The notes beneath the pieces are model-generated. The model had not been told where the DNA came from. It saw only the letters and a list, made by a program, of their open reading frames with translations, and made no database searches. From an uncultured bacterium (GTDB taxonomy: Bacteria; Patescibacteriota; Patescibacteriia; Patescibacteriales; SZUA-104): 54,874 nt of DNA. This document shows, in pieces, positions 4,757 to 46,897 of the stretch (within the stretch, counting starts at the first letter, position 1; every line of letters starts with the position of its first letter). The stretch covers positions 1 through 54,874 of the forward strand of contig CAJVWV010000001.1 of NCBI GenBank assembly GCA_913009695.1. Reading direction: 5' to 3'. The position numbers were made by a program, and so were the translations under genes.

Positions 4757-4853
4757 TGCCAAAACTCAAATGACAAATAAAATTCAAATTTCAAATGCTT
4801 AAATTTTAACATTAAGTCATTTGGATTTGATTTGATATTTGGATTTTGTCATT
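4757..4853. repeat. AT-rich imperfect palindrome between dnaG and the next gene
   Basis: Left arm aaatgacaaataaaattcaaatttcaaatg and right arm catttggatttgatttgatatttggattttgtcattt are imperfect reverse complements built of ~7-nt units. Confidence 0.5.
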
Positions 4854-5314
4854 TAAAAATTAAATAGCTTTTTCCACCAACTTTTCTTTTTTAAAAGTTT
4901 CGCGTTTTTATCATATTTTCTGTTCCCGTCAATACTATTTATAATATCACCCTTTTCTTCCTCTCCTTGATAAGGAGAGGACTGAAGTGGGGTTGATAGT
5001 CCTTTTAATCTTTCTATCTCATTTTCGACCACTTCTCCTCCATGCTCAGCGTTATGCATGCGCGTACCCTGATAACTCGGCTGTTTCTGGTCTAAATGAA
5101 GATCAAACACGATTTTATCACCTTGCTCCATGACATACATATGAAGTTTTGGAAAAATACCCTGTCCTAAGCGCCTTGAAAAACTTTCCTTTCCGCTTCT
5201 GCGATCACGAAAATAACCATATCCAGCTCTTCTCAAGAACTGCTCTGGCGCCATATTTAATTGATTTATATTTAATATTAGCTTCATAGCCAGGTTAGCG
5301 GACTGTTTGTCCAC
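4853..5314 (-). CDS. Hypothetical protein (no family recognised); true start probably ATG 5287
   Basis: 153-aa ORF. The first 9 codons overlap a complex palindromic structure, and the internal Met10 (MKLILNINQL...) is the more likely start. It contains a diverged palindromic mini-element at 4957-4996. Confidence 0.55.
   Translation of the reverse strand: MDKQSANLAMKLILNINQLNMAPEQFLRRAGYGYFRDRRSGKESFSRRLGQGIFPKLHMYVMEQGDKIVFDLHLDQKQPSYQGTRMHNAEHGGEVVENEIERLKGLSTPLQSSPYQGEEEKGDIINSIDGNRKYDKNAKLLKKKSWWKKLFNF
4957..4996 (+). repeat. Diverged copy of the palindrome + G-tail mini-element (family 1) inside a CDS
   Basis: CCTCTCCTT-gat-AAGGAGAGG followed by actgaagtGGGGTTGA; compare 14995-15030, 17515-17550, 45526-45561. 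Confidence 0.6.
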
Positions 5315-7050: not shown

Positions 7051-7123
7051 TGCGGAAGGGAGAGGATTTACCCCTACGCTTCGCTTCGGGGCATAAACTT
7101 CTCATCCTCTCAATTATTTGCGG
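7051..7123 (+). repeat. 68-bp repeat unit carrying the 3' end of tRNA-Ser (distal copy, plus the first 5 nt of a second unit)
   Basis: tgcggaagggagaggatttacccctacgcttcgcttcggggcataaacttctcatcctctcaattatt is identical to the two tandem units at 13051-13186. gcggaagggagaggatt equals the complement of the tRNA-Ser 3' end (13188-13204). Confidence 0.9.
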
Positions 7124-7443
7124 TGCCTTTTGGACGAAATTAGAACTTATTTTGAAGAAAATCCGTCTGCGGATTTTTAAACCGCTAAATATTCGCCTCC
7201 TCCGCCAGCGGGCGGATAAGGCGTAATTATTATTTTAAGGGCAATTTTCAAAAAGGGGGCGGGCAAAAAGGAAACATCAATCTAAAAAAGAAACTCAAAA
7301 TTAAAAAAGTTTTTTACTTAAATTACGCTCCGCTCACCGCCGAAGGCAAAAAAAGGAAGGCTTTTCAAGCCTAAAGAAAATCGGTCAAAAAGGAAGGGGG
7401 GTCAGGGAGAGGAAATTTTTGTCCGATTTTTTTTAGGCTCATA

Positions 7444-7507
7444 CCCCGCTACGCGGGGCTTATTTGGGGCAATATTATTTTTCGTCCCAATAGTATTGGG
7501 ATGCCGT
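7444..7507 (+). repeat. Left copy of an inverted repeat pair (42 nt identical plus a homologous hairpin)
   Basis: ccccgctacgcggggcttatttggggcaatattatttttcgt matches the reverse complement of 12975-13016 exactly. The following hairpin tcccaatagtattggga corresponds to atcccgaagcttcgggat in the other copy. Confidence 0.85.
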
Positions 7508-7572
7508 CTAAAAATTTATATGATGACGGACTGGTTTTAATTTTTTTATATAATAGGTCGGTCTTTTAAGCT

Positions 7573-9450
7573 TTATTTAGATTGTGTAAAACGAAAAAGC
7601 CTTAAACTATTTAAAATTACCAAAATGGCTATGCCTGAATCCGCGCCAATAGCGTATTCAAGATGAGCAAAACCCAAGAGGGCAAAAATAAGAAATATGG
7701 ATTTTACCCCGAGAGAAGCGATAATATTTTGCTTGATTGTTCTTAGGGTTTGTTTGCCGAGATTTACCGCATAAGGAATATTTGAAAGATTGCTGTTCAT
7801 TAACGCTACGTCCGCTGTTTCAATCGCAACGTCAGACCCGCCCACGCCCATGGCGATTCCTACGGTCGCGGTTGCCAAAGAAGGCGCGTCATTCACTCCA
7901 TCTCCAACCATGGCCGTGAAACCAAATTTATTTTTTAATTCTTCAACTCTCTCTACTTTCTCGTCCGGCAAAAGCGAAGCATAAATTTCTTTAATATTAA
8001 GCTTTTTAGCGACAAAATTCGCGGTATGCTTATTATCTCCGGTTACCATAACCGAATGAACACCAATTTTATCAAGACTTTGGATTGTTAATCCGGCGCT
8101 ATCCCGTATCTTATCGGCAATTGCCAATGCTCCCATAATTTTATTGCCGCAACTGACAAGAACCACTGTCTTGCCCTCTTTTTCAAATTTTTCAATTTTA
8201 TCAGAAACTTCTTTTACGGAAACATTATTTGCCCGCATAAGCTTTAGATTACCGATGCAGTGCCGGGAATCATCGCAGACCACGCAGTCAGCCCTGCCGC
8301 CCTTGCCGGCGATATTTTCATATTTTTCCATTAAGTGCGGCGTAATTCCTTTTTTTTCGGCGAATTCTAAAATGCTTTTTGAAAGCGGGTGGGAGGAAAA
8401 CTTTTCAATGCCGGCGGCGTCAGCTAAAATTTCTTCTTCGGAATATCCGTTAAAAGCGATAATATCCGAAATATACGGCTCGCCGAAAGTTAATGTTCTT
8501 GTTTTGTCAAAGGCGATAGCTTTTATTTTTCCTAGCATTTCCAAGTGCTTACCCCCTTTTATAAGCAATCCGCGCTTGGACGCTCCGCCGATTGCCGAAG
8601 CGATAGAAACAGGAGTGGAAATAACTAACGCGCAAGGGCAGGCAATCACCAAAAGCACCAACGCCCGATAAAGCCAATCGCCGAACACGCCGCCGAAAAA
8701 CAATACCGGAATTACGGTAATAGCGGCGGCAACGGCCACAACTCCCGGAGTATAGTATTTCGCGAAACGATCAATAAAATCCTGCGAAGGCGCGCGCGAT
8801 CTTTGCGCTTTTTCAACCAAATCTACAATTTTCGCGAAAGTAGAATCCTTGCTCTCCTTTATAACTTCAATTTCCAGATACCCCTGGCTGTTTAACGTGC
8901 CGGCAAAAACATTGTCGCCTTCGCGCTTATCCCTGGGAATCGGCTCGCCGGTGATAGTCGCTTCGTCAACCGATGAAACCCCCTTTACCACAATTCCATC
9001 AAGAGGAATCATGTCTCCGGGACGGACGGCTACGATATCCTTAACTTTTATTTTCTCAATGGACATTTTTTTTCCGTTCCTAAGAGTCGCTGTTTGCGGA
9101 GATTTTTTAACAAGCTCTTCCAATGCCCGTTTTGACCGTTCAATCCCGAATTTTTCAAAAGCCTCGGCAAGTGAAAAGAAAAACACCACTGTCGCCGCCT
9201 CTGCCAGCTGGCTAATATAGATAGCTCCGATGGCCGCGATGATTACTAAAAAATCTATATTTAAAAACTTCTGTTTTATAATCCCGCGAACAGCCGCGGT
9301 AAAAACAAAATAACCGCCAGAAATTATGGAAACAGCGTAAAGCGGAAAAATAATAAACTCAAATAAATTCAGCCAGCCGAAAACAAGGGCAAAAAGAAGG
9401 CTTATTCCCGATATAACTGTTAAAATTTTCTTTAAATCAAAATTTAACAT
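7573..9450 (-). CDS. P1B-type heavy-metal translocating ATPase (Zn/Cd/Co-like CPC type), no N-terminal metal-binding domain
   Basis: 625 aa; motifs TGEP, CPC (ACPCALVIS), SSHPLS, GDGVNDAP. The phosphorylation motif reads DKTRT rather than DKTGT. The ORF begins directly with TM helices. Confidence 0.9.
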   Translation of the reverse strand: MLNFDLKKILTVISGISLLFALVFGWLNLFEFIIFPLYAVSIISGGYFVFTAAVRGIIKQKFLNIDFLVIIAAIGAIYISQLAEAATVVFFFSLAEAFEKFGIERSKRALEELVKKSPQTATLRNGKKMSIEKIKVKDIVAVRPGDMIPLDGIVVKGVSSVDEATITGEPIPRDKREGDNVFAGTLNSQGYLEIEVIKESKDSTFAKIVDLVEKAQRSRAPSQDFIDRFAKYYTPGVVAVAAAITVIPVLFFGGVFGDWLYRALVLLVIACPCALVISTPVSIASAIGGASKRGLLIKGGKHLEMLGKIKAIAFDKTRTLTFGEPYISDIIAFNGYSEEEILADAAGIEKFSSHPLSKSILEFAEKKGITPHLMEKYENIAGKGGRADCVVCDDSRHCIGNLKLMRANNVSVKEVSDKIEKFEKEGKTVVLVSCGNKIMGALAIADKIRDSAGLTIQSLDKIGVHSVMVTGDNKHTANFVAKKLNIKEIYASLLPDEKVERVEELKNKFGFTAMVGDGVNDAPSLATATVGIAMGVGGSDVAIETADVALMNSNLSNIPYAVNLGKQTLRTIKQNIIASLGVKSIFLIFALLGFAHLEYAIGADSGIAILVILNSLRLFRFTQSK

Positions 9451-9461
9451 TATATATTCTA

Positions 9462-9944
9462 TTATTTATCGCAAGTTTCACAATCATCGCATTTACCGGT
9501 CTTGCATGTGTCTTTTCCCAATCCTTTATCCTTACAGATTATTTTATCCTCCCCACATTCGCATAAATCATCTTGTTGAGGTACAAATATACAACTTTGC
9601 GGTTCTTCAGGATTGCAATTTTTGTACTTAATTAAATTATACACGCTTTTACCGCTAAAGAACAGAGAAACAAAAAATAAAATAACTAAAAACCAGGATA
9701 TTGGCTCCCAAAAACGGTTAATTCCCCTAGCCAATTTCGGCGACCTATTAAGCAGCTGGCCGATAACCTTGCCTTTAATTTTTTTATCAAACCCCGTGTT
9801 GCAGGGGCGCAAAGTAACTCGCCTAAAAACACAATCAAGAGCTTCTTTTGCCAATTGACGGTGAGTGGCGCTAAATATTCCCAAGACTGAAAATATTATT
9901 AAAGCGATTAAACAAAACATAAAATTCCATGAGACTGTCGCCAA
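9462..9944 (-). CDS. Cys-rich small membrane protein (unknown family), probably co-transcribed with the ATPase
   Basis: 160-aa ORF with two hydrophobic segments and 9 Cys in the last 51 aa (CNPEEPQSC...CECGEDKIIC...CKTGKCDDCETCDK). An 11-nt gap separates it from the ATPase start. The start is uncertain (TTG 9944 or ATG 9920). Confidence 0.55.
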   Translation of the reverse strand: MATVSWNFMFCLIALIIFSVLGIFSATHRQLAKEALDCVFRRVTLRPCNTGFDKKIKGKVIGQLLNRSPKLARGINRFWEPISWFLVILFFVSLFFSGKSVYNLIKYKNCNPEEPQSCIFVPQQDDLCECGEDKIICKDKGLGKDTCKTGKCDDCETCDK

Positions 9945-10034
9945 ACCTCGTTGTGGGTGAAATTTTTTGGATTTTCAAACATAAATTGACAAAAATACTA
10001 AAATTTCAGACGTGGCGAAATTTGGCGATAGCCC

Positions 10035-11246
10035 CTACATGATATTAATTATTTTTCTTAAGTTATCAACAAAAATACGCGCTTCATCCTCTGTATTGTA
10101 AAAATACAGAGAAGCGCGTACCGCATTTTTAATTGCATGGCTGGCAAACCACGAATGCACGCAAAACTGCCCCGAGCGAACCATTATATTAGCACTTGAA
10201 TCAAGCATTAAAGCTATTTGATGTGAATCTTTTCCCTCTAAATAAAATGAAATAATACCACCCCTTAAAGCCGGATCAGACGAACCAATAATCTTCAGAT
10301 CAGGAATGTTCATTAATTCTTCCGTAATTATGCGATTTAGTATTGTTTCTTGGTTAGCTATATTTTTTAATCCTATTTTCTTAATATAATTTATAGCCGC
10401 ACCTAAGCCGATAATTCCGGCGTAATCCTGCAACCCGGCTTCAAATTTTTCCGGCGGGGGTAGTAATTTATGTCCTTCATACGTTGAGTATTCAACTGTT
10501 TCACCACCCACCATAAACGGCTCAAGATCTTCTAAAAGATTGTATTTACCGTATAATACTCCGATGCCGGATGGCCCGAGCATTTTATGCCCGGAAAAAG
10601 CTAAAAAATCCACATCCAATTCAGCTACATTAATTTCTTGATGCGGCGCCGCTTGAGCCGCATCCAACAACACCTTGGCCCCATGGCTATGCGCAATTTG
10701 AATTATTTCTTTAACCGGCGCGCTTACTCCGTCTAAATTGGAAGTGTATACCATCGCTACTAGCTTTACATGCTTAGTCATCATTTTTTCAAATCTTTCC
10801 ATATCAAAAGTATTATCTTTTTTTGAATATGCTATTGAAAGGAATATCCCTTTGTTTTTTGCCGCAATTTGCCAAGGGACAAGGTTGGAGTTATGTTCTT
10901 TGTCGGTAATTAAAACCACGTCCCCCGCATCCAATTTTAATGAATTGGCGATCAGATTTATGCTTTCGGTGGTGTTGCGGGTAAAAATGATTTCTTCTTT
11001 TCTTTTGGCGTTAATGAACCTAGCCACCGTCTTCCTCGCTTCCTCGCATTTTTTAGTTACCATATCTCCCAGTGTATGCATACTGCGCCCGGCGCAAGCT
11101 GAATATCTTTCATAATAGTGGTTTACAGCATTGATTACGGGCTGAGGACGCAAAGCCTGGCAGGCGTTATCAAAGTATATAATCGGCTTATCCCCAACCT
11201 TAATTTGCAGCAAGGGAAAATCTTGCCTAATTTTTTCTATATCCAT
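10035..11246 (-). CDS. sufS: Cysteine desulfurase, SufS/NifS-like class V aminotransferase
   Basis: 403 aa; PLP-lysine motif SGHKMLGPSGIGVLYG; C-terminal catalytic Cys loop RSGQFCVHSW. Confidence 0.8.
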   Translation of the reverse strand: MDIEKIRQDFPLLQIKVGDKPIIYFDNACQALRPQPVINAVNHYYERYSACAGRSMHTLGDMVTKKCEEARKTVARFINAKRKEEIIFTRNTTESINLIANSLKLDAGDVVLITDKEHNSNLVPWQIAAKNKGIFLSIAYSKKDNTFDMERFEKMMTKHVKLVAMVYTSNLDGVSAPVKEIIQIAHSHGAKVLLDAAQAAPHQEINVAELDVDFLAFSGHKMLGPSGIGVLYGKYNLLEDLEPFMVGGETVEYSTYEGHKLLPPPEKFEAGLQDYAGIIGLGAAINYIKKIGLKNIANQETILNRIITEELMNIPDLKIIGSSDPALRGGIISFYLEGKDSHQIALMLDSSANIMVRSGQFCVHSWFASHAIKNAVRASLYFYNTEDEARIFVDNLRKIINIM

Positions 11247-11285
11247 ATTTTAATTTTAATAATTTATTTTAATGCGACGCAAGAA

Positions 11286-11327
11286 CGCAATCTCAGTTTA
11301 GGCGTACTAGCGTAAACTGAGATTGCG
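11286..11327 (-). terminator. Long hairpin between the thioredoxin-fold gene and sufS (terminator or attenuator)
   Basis: GCAATCTCAGTTTA...TAAACTGAGATTGC, 14-bp arms. No clean U-run on the minus strand, so its function is uncertain. Confidence 0.35.
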
Positions 11328-11358
11328 AATTTTATATCCCGTGCTAGAAATCAACAAT

Positions 11359-12339
11359 TTAACTGCCGCATCCCCCAGCATTAGAACCGCTGCCGCTAAA
11401 TCCAAATCCCGGCGCTGGCGGAGTGGAAGATAATTTTTTATCGCATTCAGGCGGCGGATTATTAAAGCTTGAACAAATTGTCTTCAACAGACTGCTTGAG
11501 TCACGACCAGATTGAATCTTCGCGCCATTAACCACTAAAGTAGGTGAACCTTTTACGCCATATTTCTGGCCGTCAACTTTATCAACATTAAATTGCGGAT
11601 ACCGGCCACCTGACCAAGTCCCTTTATCAGCGAATAATTCACTAACCTTAAATTCCTTATCAGTAGACGAAATACAGGACTGCAATTGGGATTGATTAAC
11701 TTTTGTTTTAGCCAGGCAAGCGTTGGACTTAGTTTCATCCTCAAGAAAACACTCTAAATAATCATGCAATTTTTCAGGCTCATTTTTTTGAACGCAATAT
11801 TGGATTAACTGTTCGTCAAGCTCTTTCTTCCCATGCATTGCGTAGTCAACAAACTTTAATTTAAAATTAACCTTATCGCCAAGAACGTCTAACACTGGCA
11901 AAATCCCTTTTTCCATCTGCGTGCCATAAGGGCAATAGCTCATAATAAACAGTTCTACTTCCGGCTTATCATTTTTTATCGTCGCCGCGTTTGCCGGCTG
12001 GCTTGTTTGCTTGGCGGAGTTATCGGAATTATCGCTTGCATCGGCTTCAGTCAAATTCATAGCTTGCGGAAATAATTTTTTACCGTCCTTTGTCACAAAA
12101 GAATCTGTTTCCTGACCGTCAGGCAAAACAATAACAATCTTGTACAGCCCGCCCTCTTCCACGGCCTCTTTTACGGTGGCCTCTTTTCCTGCCTGCATTA
12201 AATTATTATTTATAAATTCAATTGCCTTAGTCTTCGCCTCCTCTAGAGAGATATTGTCTGTTTTATTGCCTTGGTTTACGGCGCTACAACCGGCAACCGT
12301 AAATACTAACAGCAGGCTTAATATTAATGTTTTAAACAT
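11359..12339 (-). CDS. Thioredoxin-fold lipoprotein
   Basis: 326 aa; lipobox LLVFTVAGCSA; redox-type motif SYCPYGT; Gly/Ser-rich C-terminus. Confidence 0.7.
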   Translation of the reverse strand: MFKTLILSLLLVFTVAGCSAVNQGNKTDNISLEEAKTKAIEFINNNLMQAGKEATVKEAVEEGGLYKIVIVLPDGQETDSFVTKDGKKLFPQAMNLTEADASDNSDNSAKQTSQPANAATIKNDKPEVELFIMSYCPYGTQMEKGILPVLDVLGDKVNFKLKFVDYAMHGKKELDEQLIQYCVQKNEPEKLHDYLECFLEDETKSNACLAKTKVNQSQLQSCISSTDKEFKVSELFADKGTWSGGRYPQFNVDKVDGQKYGVKGSPTLVVNGAKIQSGRDSSSLLKTICSSFNNPPPECDKKLSSTPPAPGFGFSGSGSNAGGCGS

Positions 12340-12545
12340 ATAATTTTACTCAATTTTATTCGTTATATTCTTAAAAATTTTCCAAAATATTATTTGGATA
12401 AAATTAACAACCAATAACATTGAATTTTTTATTTATTAATTTATTATTTTGTTTATAGTCATAATTTTATCTTTTTATCACAAACAAAAAAAGTGGTAGG
12501 TGACTAACATTATTAAATATAACATCTAATAATACTGCTCTCTCA

Positions 12546-12713
12546 CTATATATGGGAATTTATATCTTCGCTAAAACAAAATGACTTATTACATTCATTA
12601 ATGGAAGTAAAAACACAGCCATCAGGTAGGCAAAAATCCCAAGACGAAGGCAGGGCCACGGCGTAAGCGAATGAAATAAATATTAAAATTGATAAAATTA
12701 TTCTTAATTTCAT
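12546..12713 (-). CDS. Possible small secreted Cys-rich peptide (55 aa, below the ORF-track cutoff)
   Basis: Own translation: MKLRIILSILIFISFAYAVALPSSWDFCLPDGCVFTSINECNKSFCFSEDINSHI*. It has a signal-peptide-like N-terminus and 4 Cys; the SD is weak (AAGAAG). Confidence 0.3.
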   Translation of the reverse strand: MKLRIILSILIFISFAYAVALPSSWDFCLPDGCVFTSINECNKSFCFSEDINSHI

Positions 12714-12944
12714 ATCTTCTTTATATTTATAGTCCTATTCTAACATACAATAAATAATAAGTGTAGCTGAATCTTGCCTCACGCAGAATGAGCCCGAAAT
12801 GGATATAAATTTAGCATTTCTGCCAATTAAAACTAAAATTTATATTCTAAATGTAATATGATAGATCAGAATATATAATACACACAATAAATAAGGGAGT
12901 TCATTTGTCTCGCGCGCGAATGGGCGGGAGGGTCAAGCGCGAGT

Positions 12945-12978
12945 AAAAAAACGGCGTATCCCGAAGCTTCGGGATACG
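12945..12978 (-). terminator. Intrinsic terminator downstream of tRNA-Ser and its repeat array
   Basis: Minus strand: CGTATCCCGAAGCTTCGGGATACG (perfect 10-12 bp stem) followed by ccgTTTTTTT. Confidence 0.7.
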
Positions 12979-13016
12979 AAAAATAATATTGCCCCAAATA
13001 AGCCCCGCGTAGCGGG
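12954..13016 (-). repeat. Right copy of the inverted repeat pair (see 7444-7507)
   Basis: The reverse complement reads ttgCCCCGCTACGCGGGGCTTATTTGGGGCAATATTATTTTTCGTatcccgaagcttcgggatacgccgt. Confidence 0.85.
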
Positions 13017-13050
13017 GCAATAATCTTTAAAAAATCTAAAATTGTAAAAA

Positions 13051-13186
13051 TGCGGAAGGGAGAGGATTTACCCCTACGCTTCGCTTCGGGGCATAAACTT
13101 CTCATCCTCTCAATTATTTGCGGAAGGGAGAGGATTTACCCCTACGCTTCGCTTCGGGGCATAAACTTCTCATCCTCTCAATTATT
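13051..13186 (+). repeat. Two perfect tandem 68-bp units abutting the 3' end of tRNA-Ser
   Basis: Units 13051-13118 and 13119-13186 are identical. Each ends (minus-strand sense) with the last 17 nt of tRNA-Ser and contains the internal hairpin GAGAGGAT...ATCCTCTC. Confidence 0.9.
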
Positions 13187-13188
13187 TG

Positions 13189-13275
13189 CGGAAGGGAGAG
13201 GATTCGAACCTCCGAGACCTTTTACAGCCTACCGCCTTTCCAAGGCGGCGCACTCGACCACTATGCGACCCTTCC
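13189..13275 (-). tRNA. tRNA-Ser (anticodon GGA), long variable arm, CCA not encoded
   Basis: Minus read GGAAGGGTCGCATAGTGGTCGAGTGCGCCGCCTTGGAAAGGCGGTAGGCTGTAAAAGGTCTCGGAGGTTCGAATCCTCTCCCTTCCG. It has a CCGCC/GGCGG anticodon stem with a TT-GGA-AA loop and type II tRNA architecture. Confidence 0.9.
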
Positions 13276-14293: not shown

Positions 14294-15799
14294 TTATAAT
14301 ACTGGCTTTTTCTTGTGCCACTCCGTTGCCTTCTCATAATTATGTCCGACTCTAAAGAGCATCTCTTCATCAAATCTCTTTCCAATTAACTGCATACCAA
14401 CCGGCAAGCCGTCATCAAATCCGCAAGGCACTGAAATAGCAGGAAGACCCGCAAGTGAAGCTCCTGTAACAAAAATATCTTCTAAATACATCTTTAATGG
14501 GTCATCAGACTGTTCTCCGATTTTAAATGCCGTATGCGGAGAAGACGGAGTTAGAAGACAATCTACTTTCTCTAACGCTTCATCCATTTCTTCTTTTATT
14601 TTGGTTCTTACTTTTTGCGCTTGCAGATAATAGGCGTCATAATATCCGGCGCTTAAGGCGTATGTTCCCAGCATTATTCTTCTTTTAACTTCCGATCCAA
14701 ACCCCTTGCCCCTACTCTTTGTATAAACTTCCATTAAATTTTTTGAATCTTTTTCTGAAAAACCATACCTTATTCCGTCATGTCTTGCTAAATTAGAACT
14801 AACTTCCGACGGAGTAATAATATAATAAACCGGGATGCCGTATTTTGTATGAGGTAAGCTGACATCAATAAACTCAGCTCCTAATTCTTTAAATTTTTCA
14901 ATCGCCTTGTTTATTGCCTCGGTAACACCCTTTGTAATTCCACTAATAAAATATTCTTTGGGTAAACCAATCTTTAAACCATTCAACTTTTGCTCCCTCT
15001 CCTTGCTAAGGAGAGGGTTGGGGTGAGGTTTGACGGCTGGGGCATCAACTGTTGTTGAATCATTTTTATCAACTCCTTCCATGATCCGTAAAACAATTTC
15101 CGTGTCTTCTATTGTTTTGGTTACAGAACCGGGAACATCAGTTGAGGATGTCATCGCTATAAGACCAAAACGAGATGCCCTTCCATAAGTCGGCTTAAGC
15201 CCTACTACTCCGCAAAAGCTGGCAGGTTGTCTTATGGAGCCTCCTGTATCCGTCCCAAGCGCAAATATACACATATCCGCCGCTACTGCCGCCGCTGAAC
15301 CGCCGGATGAACCGCCCGGCACCATTGTTAAATCCCATGGATTATGAGTCGTTCCATAAGCGCTATTTTCCGTAGAAGCTCCGTGCGCGAATTCATCCAT
15401 ATTAGTTTTTCCCAAAAGAACCGCGCCCGCGTTCTTTAATTTTTTAACAACCGCAGCGTCAAAAGGCGCGATATAACCTTCCAGTATCTTAGAAGCCGCG
15501 TTCGTTTCAATACCCTTAGTCATTATATTCATCTTGCATAAATACGGAATTCCTAATAAAGACGATTCAGGTTCTGAGGGCCTTTTAGAGGCTCTCAGAA
15601 CCTTGCGAGCCTTGCGCCGTTCATCAGCCTCTTTAGCTTCTTTTAAAGCTTCTTTTCCGCACACCTTTAAACAAGCCTTAATTTTTTTATCAACTTCTTT
15701 AATACGCGCTAAACACGCCTTAGTTAATTCAACTGAGGTTATCTCGCCCTTTTCTAGCTTTTCACTAGCCTCTCTTATTGTAAGCTCATTCAATCCCAT
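14294..15799 (-). CDS. gatA: Glu/Asp-tRNA amidotransferase subunit A
   Basis: 501 aa; amidase signature GGSSGGSAAAVAA...GTDTGGSIRQPA. It contains two palindromic insert-like segments (14995-15030 and 15570-15602). Confidence 0.95.
   Translation of the reverse strand: MGLNELTIREASEKLEKGEITSVELTKACLARIKEVDKKIKACLKVCGKEALKEAKEADERRKARKVLRASKRPSEPESSLLGIPYLCKMNIMTKGIETNAASKILEGYIAPFDAAVVKKLKNAGAVLLGKTNMDEFAHGASTENSAYGTTHNPWDLTMVPGGSSGGSAAAVAADMCIFALGTDTGGSIRQPASFCGVVGLKPTYGRASRFGLIAMTSSTDVPGSVTKTIEDTEIVLRIMEGVDKNDSTTVDAPAVKPHPNPLLSKEREQKLNGLKIGLPKEYFISGITKGVTEAINKAIEKFKELGAEFIDVSLPHTKYGIPVYYIITPSEVSSNLARHDGIRYGFSEKDSKNLMEVYTKSRGKGFGSEVKRRIMLGTYALSAGYYDAYYLQAQKVRTKIKEEMDEALEKVDCLLTPSSPHTAFKIGEQSDDPLKMYLEDIFVTGASLAGLPAISVPCGFDDGLPVGMQLIGKRFDEEMLFRVGHNYEKATEWHKKKPVL
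14995..15030 (+). repeat. Family 1 palindrome + G-tail mini-element, in frame in gatA
   Basis: CCCTCTCCTT-gct-AAGGAGAGGG-t-TGGGGTGAGGTT; encodes PHPNPLLSKERE on the minus strand. Confidence 0.85.
15570..15602. repeat. 33-nt GC-rich palindrome in frame in gatA
   Basis: GGTTCTGAGGGCC-ttttaga-GGCTCTCAGAACC (12 of 13 arm positions pair), followed by the direct repeat ccttgcgag/ccttgcgcc. It encodes ...KVLRASKRPSEPE... Confidence 0.6.
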
Positions 15800-16209: not shown

Positions 16210-18806
<2,597 letters not shown>

Positions 18807-21945: not shown

Positions 21946-22782
21946 TTAATTGATAATTGTTAATTGATTTAAGTACCAATTCAAAATTTCACCTCCCCAA
22001 AACATAGTTATTATAGTAGCTAGGGACAAAAATACGCCTAAAGGAATCTGTGAGCTCCATTTCTTTTTACCTGCCACAATCAAACCAACACCTACGACTG
22101 AGCCCATAATATAAGCTAAAAATATGGCTAATAAAATATTAGGCCAACCCAAAGCAACTCCCATCAATAACCCTAGCCTAATATCTCCTCCGCCTATCCA
22201 TTTTCCGCGCGAAACTACAAACTGAAACAAGAAGAAGCTACTTCCTATTATACCAGAAATTAACAAGTTTTGCCAAGAAAATCCTAAAAATAAATTAGCG
22301 ATAAAAATAATAGCTGAAGCCGGCAAGGTCACAATATCCAATATTAAATACCATCGTAAATCAATAACAAAAATAACAATCATCACAGAAATAATAAACC
22401 AATTGCGTAGCAATGTGACATAATCGTTAATTGAAAATTGAAAATTATTAATTGTTTGAAAATTGAAAATTGAAAATTGAAAATTATAAAAAAAGGCCAA
22501 CAAAAATAACACGCCCGTCACTAGCTCTACAACCGGATATTGTATAGATATTGACTTCTTACAATGCCGGCATTTCCCGCCAAGAAGCGCAAAGCTTAAA
22601 ACCGGTATATTATCGTACCAAGAAATCATTTTTTTGCATTTCGGACAAAATGATCTATTGCTCCCCCCTTTACTAAAGGGGGTTAGGGGGATTCCTTTAT
22701 AAAGACGCCAAATAAGGCAGTTTAAAAAACTGCCAATTATTAAGCCGAAGATGAAGATGAAGATGTAAATAATGTATATCAT
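21946..22782 (-). CDS. pilD: Prepilin peptidase / N-methyltransferase (A24 family)
   Basis: 278 aa; CPKC...CRHC zinc motif, multi-TM, IGGGDIRLG aspartate motif. It contains two repeat-derived segments, and its last codons lie in a TAATTGA/TAATTGT heptamer array (21933-21967). Confidence 0.9.
   Translation of the reverse strand: MIYIIYIFIFIFGLIIGSFLNCLIWRLYKGIPLTPFSKGGSNRSFCPKCKKMISWYDNIPVLSFALLGGKCRHCKKSISIQYPVVELVTGVLFLLAFFYNFQFSIFNFQTINNFQFSINDYVTLLRNWFIISVMIVIFVIDLRWYLILDIVTLPASAIIFIANLFLGFSWQNLLISGIIGSSFFLFQFVVSRGKWIGGGDIRLGLLMGVALGWPNILLAIFLAYIMGSVVGVGLIVAGKKKWSSQIPLGVFLSLATIITMFWGGEILNWYLNQLTIIN
22427..22492. repeat. (GAAAATT)n heptamer array in frame in pilD
   Basis: gttaattgaaaattgaaaattattaattgtttgaaaattgaaaattgaaaattgaaaatt is translated as YNFQFSIFNFQTINNFQFSIN. 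Its reverse complement resembles the intergenic 1318-1380. Confidence 0.85.
22664..22693 (+). repeat. Family 2 mini-element (CCCCCTTT-N3-AAAGGGGG + GGGGGATT tail) in frame in pilD
   Basis: CCCCCTTT-act-AAAGGGGG-tta-GGGGGATT; encodes GIPLTPFSKGG just before the first CxxC. Confidence 0.8.
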
Positions 22783-22853: not shown

Positions 22854-23627
22854 CTACAATTTCTGCTCAATATATTCTCTAAAGCTTAAAATTCTTTCCT
22901 GATCGTCTGAATTAATTAAAAAGGGAATAACATCCTTAGACAACTTATTCATTCTCAGTCCTGTTATTTTTTTAAACAATTTATCTTTAAGCTCTTTTTT
23001 TTCGATTTTAAACTCTTTTTTTAAAAAATCATAATCAGGAGCAGTTAATCCAAGTAAATATGAAACATCATAAAAATCACGCCCCTTCTCTCTTTTTCTT
23101 TCCAGTATTGTTACTAATTTTTGGGATAAAATAACAGAAGGCGCGTTAACTATAATTTTTCTATATATATCAAATCTATCCAATACCTTTATTTCCGGCT
23201 TAAATAGTTTCCGCTTATGGACAGTATCAATACGGACTAAAATCTTTTCATCTTTATGAGCCACTAAATTATTTTCAAACAACAATCTTGGAAATCTAAA
23301 ATAACAATGATAAGCGCCCTTTTCAATAAAACGAAATTCTATTTCAAAGCCCTTGTTTTGCATATCCTTTGCCGCGTTATTTAATAATAATTTAAATTTC
23401 TCAAATGAAAGACCGAAATTATCAAAATCCAAATCCTCAGAAAAACGAGAACTGTTGTATACAATTCTAATCGCAGTTCCACCCATAAAGCTTAAATGCT
23501 CGCTTCCCTCCATTTTAAAAATTGAATCTAAAAGCTCATGCTGAATATATTCAACTAAAACCGCCTTAGGATTGCGGCGAAAAACTTCTTCTGAATATTT
23601 TTGTTTAATTTGATTTAATGTCAACAT
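22854..23627 (-). CDS. abiEii: AbiEii/AbiGii-family nucleotidyltransferase toxin (type IV TA / abortive infection)
   Basis: 257 aa; LSFMGGTAIRIVYNSSRFSEDLDFD matches the DUF1814/AbiEii signature (GGTAL...RFSEDLDF). Confidence 0.8.
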   Translation of the reverse strand: MLTLNQIKQKYSEEVFRRNPKAVLVEYIQHELLDSIFKMEGSEHLSFMGGTAIRIVYNSSRFSEDLDFDNFGLSFEKFKLLLNNAAKDMQNKGFEIEFRFIEKGAYHCYFRFPRLLFENNLVAHKDEKILVRIDTVHKRKLFKPEIKVLDRFDIYRKIIVNAPSVILSQKLVTILERKREKGRDFYDVSYLLGLTAPDYDFLKKEFKIEKKELKDKLFKKITGLRMNKLSKDVIPFLINSDDQERILSFREYIEQKL

Positions 23628-31893: not shown

Positions 31894-31986
31894 CCCCCCT
31901 TTAGCAAGGGGGGGGTTGGGGGGATTTAGCGGAGGTGGCATATTACCACGGTTTTAAATCCCCCTAGCCCCCTTTAATAAAGGGGG
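31894..31986. repeat. Two family 2 mini-elements in inverted orientation in the pilC-pilA spacer
   Basis: 31894-31926 is CCCCCCTTtagcAAGGGGGGggttGGGGGGATT and 31957-31986 is AATCCCCCtagCCCCCTTTaataAAAGGGGG. They flank tagcggaggtggcatattaccacggtttt. Confidence 0.85.
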
Positions 31987-44665: not shown

Positions 44666-46897
44666 TTACTCCAAATGCACTTTTTTCTCCCACTCCCCTA
44701 ACTTCTCTTTCAACTCTAAATAATTACTCAAATTCTCATCTTTCTTAATTAACTTTTCAGCTTCGCTTTTAGCTAACTTCATTAATTCATAATCAAAAAG
44801 CGAGGCCATTTTTAATTCAGGAAAACCTTTCTGCATTGTACCGTAAACTTCACCGGGCCCCCTAAATTTTAAATCCATTTTAGCGAGCGCAAAACCGTCA
44901 TTATTATCAACCAGAGCCTGCAAGCGCTTTAAGGTCTTTGGTGAATCGCTTTCCGTAAACAAAAAACAATATGATTGATGATCGCTTCTTCCTACTCGAC
45001 CTCTAAATTGATGAAGCTGCGCCAACCCAAACCTGTCCGCGCCTTCTATCATCATTATTGCCGCGTTAGGCACGTCCACACCTACTTCCACGACCGACGT
45101 AGAAACTAAAATCTTTATTTTATTATCTAAAAAATCCCGCATTACTTGCTCTTTGCTGGTGGCTTTTCCGCCAGAGGCGGACCAGCCTCTGGCTGGCATA
45201 CGGCCATGAAGCATACCAATATTTAAATCTTTAAAAACCTTTTTATCTAATTTTTCAAATTCTTCTTTTACTGATTTAACACCTAATTTGTCGGACATAT
45301 CTATTAAAGGACAAATTACAAAAACCTGCCTTCCCTCTTTAATCTTTTCCCTAATAAAATCATAAACCTTTTTCCGTTTTATTTCGGGAACGACCTTAGT
45401 TAAAATCTTTTTCCTTCCAATCGGCATCTCATCAATAACCGAAATATCTAAATCGCCGTATAAAGCTAAAGCAAGCGAACGAGGAATAGGCGTAGCGGTC
45501 ATAGACAGTAAATGCGGCATTTTCTCCCTCTCCTTACTAAGGAGAGGGTCGGGGTGAGGTCCCGACTTCTCTATTATCATCTTTCTCTGCTCAACACCAA
45601 ACCTATGCTGTTCGTCTATGATTACCAACGACAGGTTTTTAAATTCTATCGTCTCCTGAATTAAAGCATGCGTTCCAATAATAACGTCAACTTCGCCACC
45701 CTTTATCGCTTTTGTCATCTTCTTTTTAGATAATCCATTGCTCTTTGTTCCATGTTCCTTGTTCCATGTTCCTTGTCTCGTGCTTCTCGTCATCAGCCCC
45801 ACCTTAATATCAAAATCAGCAAAAAAATTAATAACGCTATCATAATGCTGCTTAGCCAATATCTCCGTCGGAACCATTAAAACCGCTTGTTTTTTATTTA
45901 AAACCGTATTTAAAATCGCCATAAGAGCCACAACAGTTTTTCCGCTTCCAACGTCCCCTTCTAAAAGACGCGACATAGGATGCGGGCTTTCTATATCCTG
46001 CAAAATCTCCCAAGCCGCTTTACGCTGAGCGTCAGTCAATTTAAACGGCAAGCTATCAACAAATTTCTTAGTTTCTTTTTTTAAAAATTTAATCTTCTCC
46101 GCGACGCATTGCAATGTGTCTCTACGAATCAATTGCGACTGCGCCTGAATTAAAAAAAGCTCGTTAAACGCTAAACGCCTGCGAGCATTATCAATATCTT
46201 GCTTGTTTTTAGGAAAATGAATTTTACTTATGGCATCGCCTAAATTTAATAGCTTTAAATTCTTCTCTATTTCGTTCGGCAACCAGTCTTTCACCTCTTT
46301 AGCTAAGCCTACGACCTGCTTAATCAAAAACCGAACCTGCTTCTGCGTAATATTGGCGGTTAGATGATAATTAGGAACAAACCCCTGCGTATGCACAGCA
46401 AATCCCCCTCCGCCCCCTTTAATAAAGGGGGGATTTTTAATATTTCCCCTCTTTATTAAAGGGGGGCTGGGGGGATTTAAATGGGTTTGGGGGATTTTCT
46501 CATAAATAGGCGATTTCATAATAAAACTTCCATAATCGTCTTCAACCTTCCCGGCCAAAGAAACCTTATCACCCACCCGCAGATTCTTAGCAATAAACGG
46601 CTGATTAAACCAAATAACCTTAATACTTTCCGTATCGTCCGAAACAAGCGCCTCTACTATACTCATGCGTTTTCTGTGACTTCTTTTGCTCTGGATTAAT
46701 TCAATCTGTCCGACAACATTAGCCGACTCACCCGCCTTTAAATTATCAATCGGGGTAATCTTAGAAAAATCGTCATACCGAAACGGAAAATAATAAAGCA
46801 GGTCTTCCACCGTTTCAACACCCAATTTTTTAAGGCGTTTCGCGGTTTGAACCCCGACTCTGTTTATTTTAGTTATGTCTGTATTTAGTTCTAGCAT
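44666..46897 (-). CDS. recG: ATP-dependent DNA helicase RecG
   Basis: 743 aa; GDVGSGKT, DEQHRFGV, TATPIPRS, HGRM, QLHQFRGRVGRS. It carries at least four repeat-derived in-frame segments. Confidence 0.95.
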   Translation of the reverse strand: MLELNTDITKINRVGVQTAKRLKKLGVETVEDLLYYFPFRYDDFSKITPIDNLKAGESANVVGQIELIQSKRSHRKRMSIVEALVSDDTESIKVIWFNQPFIAKNLRVGDKVSLAGKVEDDYGSFIMKSPIYEKIPQTHLNPPSPPLIKRGNIKNPPFIKGGGGGFAVHTQGFVPNYHLTANITQKQVRFLIKQVVGLAKEVKDWLPNEIEKNLKLLNLGDAISKIHFPKNKQDIDNARRRLAFNELFLIQAQSQLIRRDTLQCVAEKIKFLKKETKKFVDSLPFKLTDAQRKAAWEILQDIESPHPMSRLLEGDVGSGKTVVALMAILNTVLNKKQAVLMVPTEILAKQHYDSVINFFADFDIKVGLMTRSTRQGTWNKEHGTKSNGLSKKKMTKAIKGGEVDVIIGTHALIQETIEFKNLSLVIIDEQHRFGVEQRKMIIEKSGPHPDPLLSKEREKMPHLLSMTATPIPRSLALALYGDLDISVIDEMPIGRKKILTKVVPEIKRKKVYDFIREKIKEGRQVFVICPLIDMSDKLGVKSVKEEFEKLDKKVFKDLNIGMLHGRMPARGWSASGGKATSKEQVMRDFLDNKIKILVSTSVVEVGVDVPNAAIMMIEGADRFGLAQLHQFRGRVGRSDHQSYCFLFTESDSPKTLKRLQALVDNNDGFALAKMDLKFRGPGEVYGTMQKGFPELKMASLFDYELMKLAKSEAEKLIKKDENLSNYLELKEKLGEWEKKVHLE
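45168..45196. repeat. GC-rich twin-hairpin segment in frame in recG
   Basis: CCGCCagaGGCGG-a-CCAGCCtctGGCTGG. The arms GCCAGAGGC/GCCTCTGGC are also mutually complementary. It encodes PARGWSASGG between HGRM and SKEQVM. Confidence 0.65.
45526..45561 (+). repeat. Family 1 mini-element in frame in recG
   Basis: CCCTCTCCTT-act-AAGGAGAGGG-t-CGGGGTGAGGTC; encodes PHPDPLLSKERE between DEQHRFGV and TATPIPR. Confidence 0.85.
45747..45774. repeat. (GTTCCAT GTTCCTT)x2 heptamer tandem repeat in frame in recG
   Basis: gttccatgttccttgttccatgttcctt; encodes part of RQGTWNKEHGTKS. Confidence 0.8.
46401..46497. repeat. Inverted pair of family 2 mini-elements plus an extra GGGGGATT tail, in frame in recG
   Basis: 46401-46432 is AATCCCCCtccgCCCCCTTTaataAAGGGGGG, 46446-46477 is CCCCTCTTTattaAAGGGGGGctGGGGGGATT, and 46489-46496 is GGGGGATT. 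Together they encode NPPSPPLIKRGNIKNPPFIKGGGGGFA. Confidence 0.85.

Follow-up and report, generated by a model that had tools for sequence, protein, structure and literature searches.

How can the same GC-rich string of about 36 nucleotides come to lie in frame within unrelated core genes of an AT-rich bacterium, and what keeps it there? The question is raised by the gatA gene on contig CAJVWV010000001.1 (GenBank assembly GCA_913009695.1) of an uncultured bacterium of the Patescibacteriota (SZUA-104), whose positions 1 to 54,874, hereafter the window, were analysed; our coverage of this genome is that 55-kb contig. At 14995-15030, gatA carries a short palindrome with a G-rich tail that recurs in ligA, in recG and, in a diverged form, in a small open reading frame (ORF). 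Judged by its architecture, this element belongs to the BoxC / PIT / TMECO class, a known kind of repeat; its three parts covary as in an intrastrand triple helix, and in Patescibacteria its copies lie mostly within genes, where they are translated as protein loops.

A three-part repeat and its covariation

On the plus strand of the window, the pattern CCCTCTCCTT-NNN-AAGGAGAGGG occurs at 14995, 17515 and 45526 without mismatch and at 4959 with two mismatches, where 0 occurrences are expected by chance (100 dinucleotide-preserving shuffles). These four copies, referred to as family 1, all lie in minus-strand ORFs; when they are aligned, similarity stops abruptly at the element edges, and the elements are conspicuously GC-richer than the window (about 34% GC). 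A repeat search of the window yielded a second family with the same architecture, CCCCCTTT-NNN-AAAGGGGG-NNN-GGGGGATT, located at 22664 (+), 31894 (+), 31957 (-), 46401 (-) and 46446 (+). In either family the tail reads as the purine arm in reverse, with G opposite G and A or T opposite A, which matches the rule for an antiparallel purine-motif (class II) triple helix made of G.G:C, A.A:T and T.A:T triads. We searched with a finder that requires a pyrimidine arm, a first loop, the complementary purine arm, a second loop and a triad-compatible third segment (stem of at least 7 nt, at most one mismatch); it returned nine distinct class II motifs in the window, four of family 1 and five of family 2, versus none in 20 shuffles; seven of the nine lie in ORFs. 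The elements and their hosts are listed below.

4853-5314, minus strand: host ORF of 153 amino acids, without family match
4957..4994, plus strand: degenerate family-1 copy in the 153-residue ORF, third frame (TPLQSSPYQGEEE)
14294..15799, minus strand: host gene gatA, 501 amino acids (TIGR00132, 597 bits, NCBIfam equivalog)
14993..15030, plus strand: family-1 motif in gatA, stem 10, loops 3 and 3, no mismatch in hairpin or triads
16210..18315, minus strand: host gene ligA, 701 amino acids (NF005932, 819 bits, NCBIfam equivalog)
17513..17550, plus strand: family-1 motif in ligA, in a different frame, at a 7-residue gap relative to E. coli LigA (2owo)
22664..22693, plus strand: family-2 motif CCCCCTTT-ACT-AAAGGGGG-TTA-GGGGGATT in the prepilin peptidase gene 21946-22782
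31894..31986: intergenic inverted pair of family 2 (31894-31925 plus, 31957-31986 minus), between the pilin and pilC genes
44666..46897, minus strand: host gene recG (NCBIfam equivalog), 743 amino acids versus about 684-700 in insert-free relatives
45524..45561, plus strand: family-1 motif in recG (GPHPDPLLSKERE), between helicase motifs II (DEQH) and III (SMTAT)
46401..46477: inverted pair of family 2 inside recG (46401-46431 minus, 46446-46477 plus)

The gatA copy consists, in order, of CT, the pyrimidine arm CCCTCTCCTT, the loop GCT, the purine arm AAGGAGAGGG, the linker TTG and the third strand GGGTGAGGTT; its C-rich strand is the mRNA sense and encodes K-PHPNPLLSKERE. The corresponding peptide in RecG is PHPDPLLSKERE, both being of the form PHPxPLLSKERE, and the C-rich strand is read in all three frames, one in GatA and RecG, a second in LigA and the third in the 153-residue ORF (TPLQSSPYQGEEE). 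In this last copy (4957..4994) the 10+10 hairpin TCCTCTCCTT/AAGGAGAGGA is perfect and the third strand is decayed (CTGAAGTGGGGTT). Among the family-2 copies, the one at 22664 encodes GIPLTPFSKGG next to the zinc-binding CxxC region of a gene with Pfam matches to A24_N_bact and Peptidase_A24, while the inverted pair in recG encodes NPPSPPLIKRGNIKNPPFIKGGGGGF, in a segment (residues about 121-170) that cannot be aligned with T. maritima RecG. Flank profiles delimit a conserved unit of about 37-38 nt, from C at -2 (92-96%), followed by a pyrimidine at -1, to T at +35 (97-100%); the rest of the profile shows no duplicated flank and nothing conserved past -2 and +35/+36. Rfam covariance models at gathering score matched two tRNAs and nothing else in the window, so that the element corresponds to no Rfam RNA family, and ViennaRNA, whose energy model leaves out triplexes, recovers the hairpin only (-10.4 kcal/mol, z = -3.7).

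Much of the preliminary description of this DNA is confirmed, and its set of four copies enlarged, by these results: the near-identical strings at 14995, 17515 and 45526 and the diverged one near 4957, their location in minus-strand genes (those of GatA, LigA, RecG and the 153-residue ORF), the 10+10 palindrome with its 3-nt loop, GC-rich against AT-rich surroundings, and the peptides given for GatA and RecG. The tail, described there as G-rich, is indeed so, but it is more than that, namely a mirror repeat of the purine arm. That copies occur only inside coding sequences and never between genes is true of family 1 but not of its sister family 2, and the orientation shared by the four copies, although real, is a local effect, since nearly all window genes are on the minus strand and both orientations and six frames are used elsewhere. 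The Shine-Dalgarno-like AAGGAG noted on both strands is present in the sequence, but nothing suggests that it is the selected feature. As a separate observation, GC skew is negative over nearly the whole window (1-54874), in which the minus strand carries almost all genes; it seems that one replichore arm has a strong gene-strand bias, and element orientation, transcription and replication direction are inseparable in the window.

From the window and the fetched related loci we then gathered all perfect homopurine-arm hairpins (8 bp or longer), ignoring the sequence 3' of them. Of 240 unique hairpins, 86% were followed 3' by a segment at least 90% triad-compatible; this was the case for 56 of the 70 hairpins outside family 1, which have dozens of different arms (e.g., AAAGAGGGG/GGGGAGATT, AGGGAAGG/GGATGGGT and AAGGAAGGAGA/AGAGGAAGGTT). 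For the covariation test, the register was set from G positions alone and each arm/tail combination was counted once, giving 75 combinations and 50 arms. The third-strand base facing an arm A was T in 124 cases, A in 97, C in 13 and G in 12 (A or T in 221 of 246), and triad compatibility of at least 90% was reached by 77% of the arms' own tails versus 4.6% of swapped tails (50 arms). Because copying errors give direct or inverted repeats and not mirror repeats, the mirror repeat must be maintained by selection, acting either on the fold or on its reader. The A/T degeneracy fits a purine motif on the G-rich DNA strand; for a pyrimidine motif on the C-rich strand, A would be required throughout. 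A pyrimidine-motif triplex, formed by the C-rich strand or by RNA, was rejected for this reason, as it needs A facing arm A on the G strand and only 97 of the 246 positions fit.

The comparison also revealed complementarity between the base at -2 and the final base of the 3-nt linker (C-G 156, T-A 24, A-T 10, T-G 10, other combinations 12). Watson-Crick or wobble pairs are the majority in 38 of 43 arm types, several of which show both C-G and T-A. In seven regions of E. coli K-12 the same rule is obeyed by 13 of 13 BoxC copies, with T at -2 where the linker is TTA (6/6) and C at -2 where it is CCG, CTG or TCG (7/7). We did not find this pair in the accessible passages of Holder 2015 (PMC4666352) or in the definition published there, and the -2/linker covariation, common to E. 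coli and the elements described here, is new as far as the literature could be checked.

Loop insertions, slot re-use and DNA-level conservation

The family-1 copies in GatA, RecG and LigA fall on gaps relative to solved structures.

GatA, structures 4wj3 and 3h0l: gap of 6 amino acids, in a variable loop
RecG, structure 1gm5: gap of 13 amino acids, between motif II (DEQH) and motif III (SAT)
LigA, structure 2owo (E. coli): gap of 7 amino acids

Only with the element included does homology continue in one frame across both flanks, and the element must therefore be translated. The net gain relative to orthologues is +6 amino acids in GatA, +7 in LigA and +9 to +13 in RecG, and hence is not the uniform addition of about 12 codons initially proposed. 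In an AlphaFold model of GatA (mean pLDDT 76), residues 248-275 are coil and the pLDDT confidence value falls below 50 at 259-264. The view of these copies as lineage-specific, in-frame loop insertions is thus well founded, given that they are absent from solved homologues and close relatives and form low-confidence coil in the GatA model; the resemblance then drawn to the behaviour of Rickettsia palindromic elements (RPEs), that is, in-frame and translated loop inserts in genes, also holds.

In RecG, close relatives have EKSG-NKKT-PHLL where the window has EKSG-PHPDPLLSKERE-KM-PHLL, and at the DNA level a 37-nt unit can be discerned between TCG GG and AAA ATG. An empty site is present in a relative (P0122/L123), with respect to which the window has 27 nt more; L123 is the nearest empty-site relative and only 72% identical, and a 37-nt insertion plus a 10-nt loss would explain the difference. 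Another relative (P0142/L124) has a decayed copy in the same place with the same loop sequence. Directly upstream of the empty-site recG, L123:1-1003 holds two adjacent ORFs with reverse transcriptase (RVT_1) matches, which may represent a split group II intron or a retron-type reverse transcriptase.

The fate of the GatA loop in other genomes is informative. The best 120 relatives of the window protein are all of Patescibacteria type and at most 80% identical to it; some of them carry family-1 peptides in this loop (PHPNPLLGKERE), others family-2-type peptides (IPLTPFVKGG, TPPAPLVRGE, SPLSLFAKGG), and others the palindrome-derived VETRRGASLQ or a plain loop, VDDYEKEIKK. The DNA of five relatives shows that families 1 and 2 share the exact junction in gatA (...AA / A-element). 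In a neighbour-joining GatA tree with the loop masked, the two families are interleaved in one large clade, and the window GatA is in another clade, so that family 1 would have entered the GatA loop at least twice. Elements are broken up by nested inserts in five GatA relatives (P0063, P0071, P0017, P0072, P0045) and in one RecG (P0165), and decayed copies exist (window 4957-4994, L124, P0002).

Synonymous variation was compared among four family-1-bearing GatA orthologues with 73-85% amino acid identity, in alignment columns with identical amino acids and degenerate codons. Inside the gatA element 1 of 10 such codons varies, versus 236 of 308 outside it (Fisher p = 2.5e-5), and the frozen codons mostly end in G or C although the genome is AT-rich. 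The single variable synonymous site is the linker base that pairs with -2, the four orthologues having C-G, T-G, C-A and T-A at this pair. The pattern points to DNA-level selection, conversion or repeated re-insertion at a fixed junction; the gatA element is no relic in passive decay, and it is not the peptide that is conserved.

Other inserts occur in the same proteins. A different GC-rich palindrome lies in frame in gatA at 15569-15603 (15-nt arms, 93% complementary), encodes RASKRPSEPESS and corresponds to a gap of 11-16 amino acids relative to solved GatA structures; yet another, in frame in recG at 45161-45193, adds ARGWSASGGK at a 10-residue gap relative to 1gm5. RecG and GatA relatives (P0124, P0128, P0129, P0130, P0138, P0003, P0004, P0076) have the palindrome-derived peptides VETRQRLVS / VETRRGASLQ and ATRCLARHRVA in the same loops. 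Several unrelated mini-palindrome families thus appear, from their sequences, to colonise protein loops in Patescibacteria. On a larger scale, nine Patescibacteria RecG relatives of 826-912 amino acids (P0173, P0176, P0183, P0187, P0210, P0212, P0217, P0231, P0232) have an inserted PF13366 (GxxExxY / PDDEXK_3) domain, which amounts to about 130-200 extra residues in the middle of the helicase.

Relation to BoxC and distribution across bacteria

The preliminary description knew of no account of such a repeat, which does not stand, as the element is a variant of E. coli BoxC / PIT / TMECO. According to Holder 2015 (PMC4666352), the source of this account of E. coli, the BoxC repeat is the same as the PIT elements (Hoyne & Maher 2000/2002) and TMECO, the pattern being CCCTCNCCC-N3-6-GGGNGAGGG-N3-GGGNGAGGG, a class II purine-motif intrastrand triplex. 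The paper gives CCCTCTCCCTGTGGGAGAGGGCCGGGGTGAGGGC as one of 23 copies in E. coli K-12, mentions five pairs in inverted arrangement, and describes the motif as "always located intergenically", with no copies inside genes. Copy number is stated to range from 29 to 1 between close E. coli strains and the flanking regions to be unusually variable, and earlier tests are reported to have found no effect on promoter, terminator, replication or conjugation.

The window element and BoxC have in common the order of C-rich arm, loop, purine arm, 3-nt linker and G-rich third segment, the core words CCCTCTCC / GGAGAGGG / GGGGTGAGG, inverted pairs and the covariation of -2 with the last linker base. The features by which BoxC is recognised, namely the order of arms and loops, a stem of at least 8 nt and a third segment that is antiparallel and triad-compatible, are all present at 14995-15030. 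The strict TMECO consensus is not matched, the window having CCCTCTCCT / AGGAGAGGG / GGGTGAGGT, a sequence variant of the E. coli consensus: the loop-proximal stem end is T:A.T in the window and C:G.G in E. coli, a difference of one coordinated triad. The two also differ in density, with nine elements per 55 kb in the window versus 23 per 4.6 Mb in K-12, and in location, E. coli copies being always intergenic whereas Patescibacteria copies are mostly in frame inside genes and translated.

Among the species-representative genomes, at least 120 stretches from many phyla contain the exact 34-mer pattern, of which 29 bases are fixed. The matches listed include Patescibacteria (Moran-, Nomura-, Falkow-, Uhr-, Doudna-, Komeili- and Magasanikbacteria, Gracilibacteria, Saccharibacteria), Cyanobacteria (Nostoc, Rivularia, Scytonema, Nodularia, Brasilonema) as well as Melainabacteria, further Armatimonadota, Ignavibacteria, Nitrospirae, Chloroflexi, Zixibacteria and Cytophagia, and Gammaproteobacteria, among them the isolate Ewingella americana ATCC 33852. 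In one cyanobacterial contig (L034:1796-1952), four family-1 elements are arranged head-to-tail with a 41-nt period (34-mer plus TAAAGCT). Carriage by phages is disfavoured, the exact pattern being found in only 2 of the 2.9 million viral contigs of IMG/VR.

The proportion of elements in long ORFs, meaning stop-free spans of at least 150 codons, differs among the groups.

Patescibacteria: elements in long ORFs 57/82; random positions in ORFs 81%
Cyanobacteria: elements in long ORFs 7/81; random positions in ORFs 73%
Melainabacteria: elements in long ORFs 6/27; random positions in ORFs 75%
Other phyla: elements in long ORFs 8/45; random positions in ORFs 86%

Among the related loci all six reading frames and both orientations are used, with a roughly 2:1 excess of the C-rich sense, a ratio from which palindrome double counts were removed by hand and in which stop-codon constraints are not separated out. 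Pfam named 19 of 20 tested host ORFs. They encode DNA repair proteins (an AddA/UvrD-type helicase-nuclease, UvrA twice, UvrC and LigA), enzymes of tRNA charging (ValRS, LeuRS, AlaRS, GluRS and a class II aminoacyl-tRNA synthetase), PNPase (twice), CarB and IF-2, and also an M16 peptidase, FemAB, a radical SAM enzyme, an O-antigen ligase and a PKD/LTD surface protein. Many proteins share the recurrent peptides PHPxPLLxKER and TSPQPSPYKGEG. The searchable literature mentions neither in-frame residence in core genes nor Patescibacteria for this motif, and the intragenic, translated lifestyle across Patescibacteria, the re-use of slots with nesting, and the DNA-level conservation inside genes are new as far as could be checked.

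Other small repeats invite comparison. RPEs, selfish palindromic repeats, reportedly lie in frame in essential genes of a reduced-genome, host-dependent bacterium and are translated as surface-loop inserts, and the window element is likewise in frame in protein genes and translated as a loop. RPEs are about 100-150 bp long, are known from one genus only and are simple long palindromes without a mirror third strand, whereas the unit here is of 37-38 nt and the host belongs to the Patescibacteria, a distinction drawn from descriptions of RPEs and not from aligned sequences. REP / BIME repeats with RAYT transposases are said to be GC-rich hairpins of 20-40 nt, often in inverted pairs and with strain-variable copy number; REPs differ from the present elements in being extragenic, species-specific and without a third strand; here there is no GTAG/CGTC tag, and Pfam showed no RAYT gene among the window ORFs. 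The small dispersed repeats of Nostoc are reportedly hairpin repeats of <40 nt that nest in each other and in MITE-like units (those resembling transposable elements of the miniature inverted-repeat type), and are said to be limited to heterocystous cyanobacteria. The likeness, which is one of description and not of sequence, lies in the family-1 copies of Nostoc loci, which sit in a larger conserved repeat. Loci of this kind (such as L005, L007, L010, L012, L031, L039 and L053) have the element inside ...ATATACCAGATGAGAAACAAGATTCTTGCT-element-TTTTACAAGGCTTTTTACAC..., nested in a MITE-like unit. The element itself is not classed as a MITE, a type marked by terminal inverted repeats matching an insertion sequence plus a target-site duplication; its flank profile has no duplicated flank.

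A few other features of the window may be mentioned. The prepilin peptidase gene that hosts a family-2 copy adjoins an AbiEii-type nucleotidyltransferase toxin gene (type IV toxin-antitoxin) at 22854-23627, after which follows a low-GC block (0.27-0.30) with methyltransferase and glycosyltransferase genes, at 24-31 kb. Exact repeats of the tRNA-Ser(GGA) 3' end, GCGGAAGGGAGAGGATT (13188-13204), occur at 13120, 13052 and 7052, where chance would give 0; these repeated ends lie in 86-nt direct repeats. The stretch of about 6 kb between the repeats (7052-13204) has a GC content of about 0.40 versus 0.34 and contains P-type ATPase, cysteine desulfurase and thioredoxin-like genes. To judge from this arrangement, it looks like an island integrated at a tRNA with tandem att-like repeats; no integrase was seen at 7052-13204.

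Maintenance and spread of the elements

The explanation that we favour, and hold to be probable, is that of a selfish, non-autonomous repeat, constrained by its structure, which acts as single-stranded DNA and is tolerated in protein loops. The G-rich single strand could fold back as a hairpin in which the purine arm additionally engages the third segment, giving a class II intrastrand triplex. This fold would be recognised by a trans-acting factor while the DNA is single-stranded, in replication, repair or a single-strand transposition-like step, and the element would thereby be copied, inserted or maintained. Patescibacteria may gather in-frame copies because their intergenic space is very short and selection on them is probably weak, as it is in Rickettsia; survival would be limited to stop-free, loop-compatible copies, translated as Pro/Gly-rich loop inserts of 10-13 amino acids. 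What the data show is the tripartite architecture, the triad covariation, the spread across phyla, the in-frame translation, the presence/absence differences between orthologues, the re-use of slots and the DNA-level conservation; we infer the mobility of the element, its action at a single-strand stage and its selfish nature.

Several points weigh against this explanation. A Pfam scan revealed no transposase or HUH gene among the ORFs of the 55-kb window, no mobilising enzyme was identified, and no target-site duplication was seen in the flank profile. For BoxC, PMC4666352 reports a stable triplex in vitro for the isolated G-rich strand and none for duplex DNA, no sign of a triplex from in vivo dimethyl sulphate footprinting, and no tie to mobile elements (transposons, phages, plasmids). 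Recent independent insertions or gene conversion, instead of selection, could account for the frozen synonymous sites, and the neighbour-joining tree is rough. Coding status of the related loci is ORF-based, and these loci were retrieved with the family-1 pattern, which biases the family abundances.

A host-beneficial structural DNA signal, for instance for fork pausing, recombination or repair, nucleoid organisation or DNA uptake, kept intact even in genes, seems to us rather unlikely. It would fit the DNA-level conservation over GatA orthologues of 73-85% identity with its compensatory -2/linker change, the same core sequence in very distant phyla, and the tie between motif and local genome variability made in Holder 2015 (PMC4666352); type IV pilus genes in these genomes are consistent with DNA uptake. 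Nevertheless, the range from 29 to 1 copies in close E. coli strains reported there means that copies are dispensable, positions are not conserved between clades, decayed copies exist (4957-4994, L124, P0002), the earlier tests on promoter, terminator, replication and conjugation, as related in the same paper, were without effect, and there is no reason for a cellular signal to occupy protein loops. If instead the repeat were only a by-product of selection for a useful Pro-rich loop module, the location of inserts in surface loops and the recurrence of PHPxPLLxKER and TSPQPSPYKGEG in many proteins would be expected. We regard this as extremely improbable: all six frames and both orientations are used, intergenic copies exist and are in the majority in other phyla, and, in a genome of about 34% GC, the frozen synonymous sites belong to codons that end in G or C.

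The nature of the selected structure and of the mobilising agent may also be viewed differently. A G-quadruplex/hairpin switch, proposed for BoxC by Kaplan 2016 as cited in PMC8044849, has in its favour the several G runs on the G-rich strand (GG, GGG, GGGG, GG) and a related archaeal repeat that switched among hairpin, triplex and G-quadruplex in vitro. It is nonetheless highly improbable as an alternative to the triplex, as a quadruplex needs no position-by-position mirror of the purine arm with A or T facing A, a mirror that holds over 50 arm types, and the G runs are interrupted in several families (AGGGAAGG/GGATGGGT, GAGGAGAAGG/GGATGAGGAG). An element of REP/RAYT type or derived from IS200/IS605, moved by a Y1 HUH transposase that recognises the hairpin, would agree with the hairpin and its short conserved 5' tag, with the clustering of copies as inverted pairs, and with the re-use of an identical junction by different families, as in site-specific single-strand insertion and precise excision. 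This origin is improbable too: there is no GTAG or CGTC end tag, the unit CTCCCTCTCCTTGCTAAGGAGAGGGTTGGGGTGAGGTT containing neither; Pfam found no Y1 transposase among the window ORFs (55 kb of the genome); the pattern is in just 2 of 2.9 million viral contigs; and REPs are species-specific, whereas the present core is common to many phyla.

The selfish-repeat explanation can be extended to a broader one, which is possible but which we put forward tentatively. Intrastrand-triplex repeats might constitute a class found across bacteria, that of the smallest DNA elements able to move or to maintain themselves, whose fold of hairpin, third strand and clamp pair would be recognised in single-stranded DNA by a conserved cellular or element-specific factor; in Patescibacteria they might have become a major and still active supplier of loop inserts to essential proteins, while inside genes their DNA would remain under purifying selection.

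For about 25 years it has been an open question whether BoxC/PIT triplex motifs ever fold, or have any importance, in vivo; E. coli experiments have shown neither a function nor a triplex in vivo. The three-way covariation over some 50 arm types, the extra pair that is also present in E. coli and the frozen synonymous sites provide independent comparative evidence for selection on the three-part fold. Across Patescibacteria, a repeat that was held to be strictly intergenic reshapes loops in aminoacyl-tRNA synthetases, in DNA-repair enzymes and in translation factors, and this affects gene calling, protein alignment and structural modelling of their genomes. With orthologous sites that are filled, empty or swapped, these bacteria offer a tractable system that could reveal how such tiny elements move.

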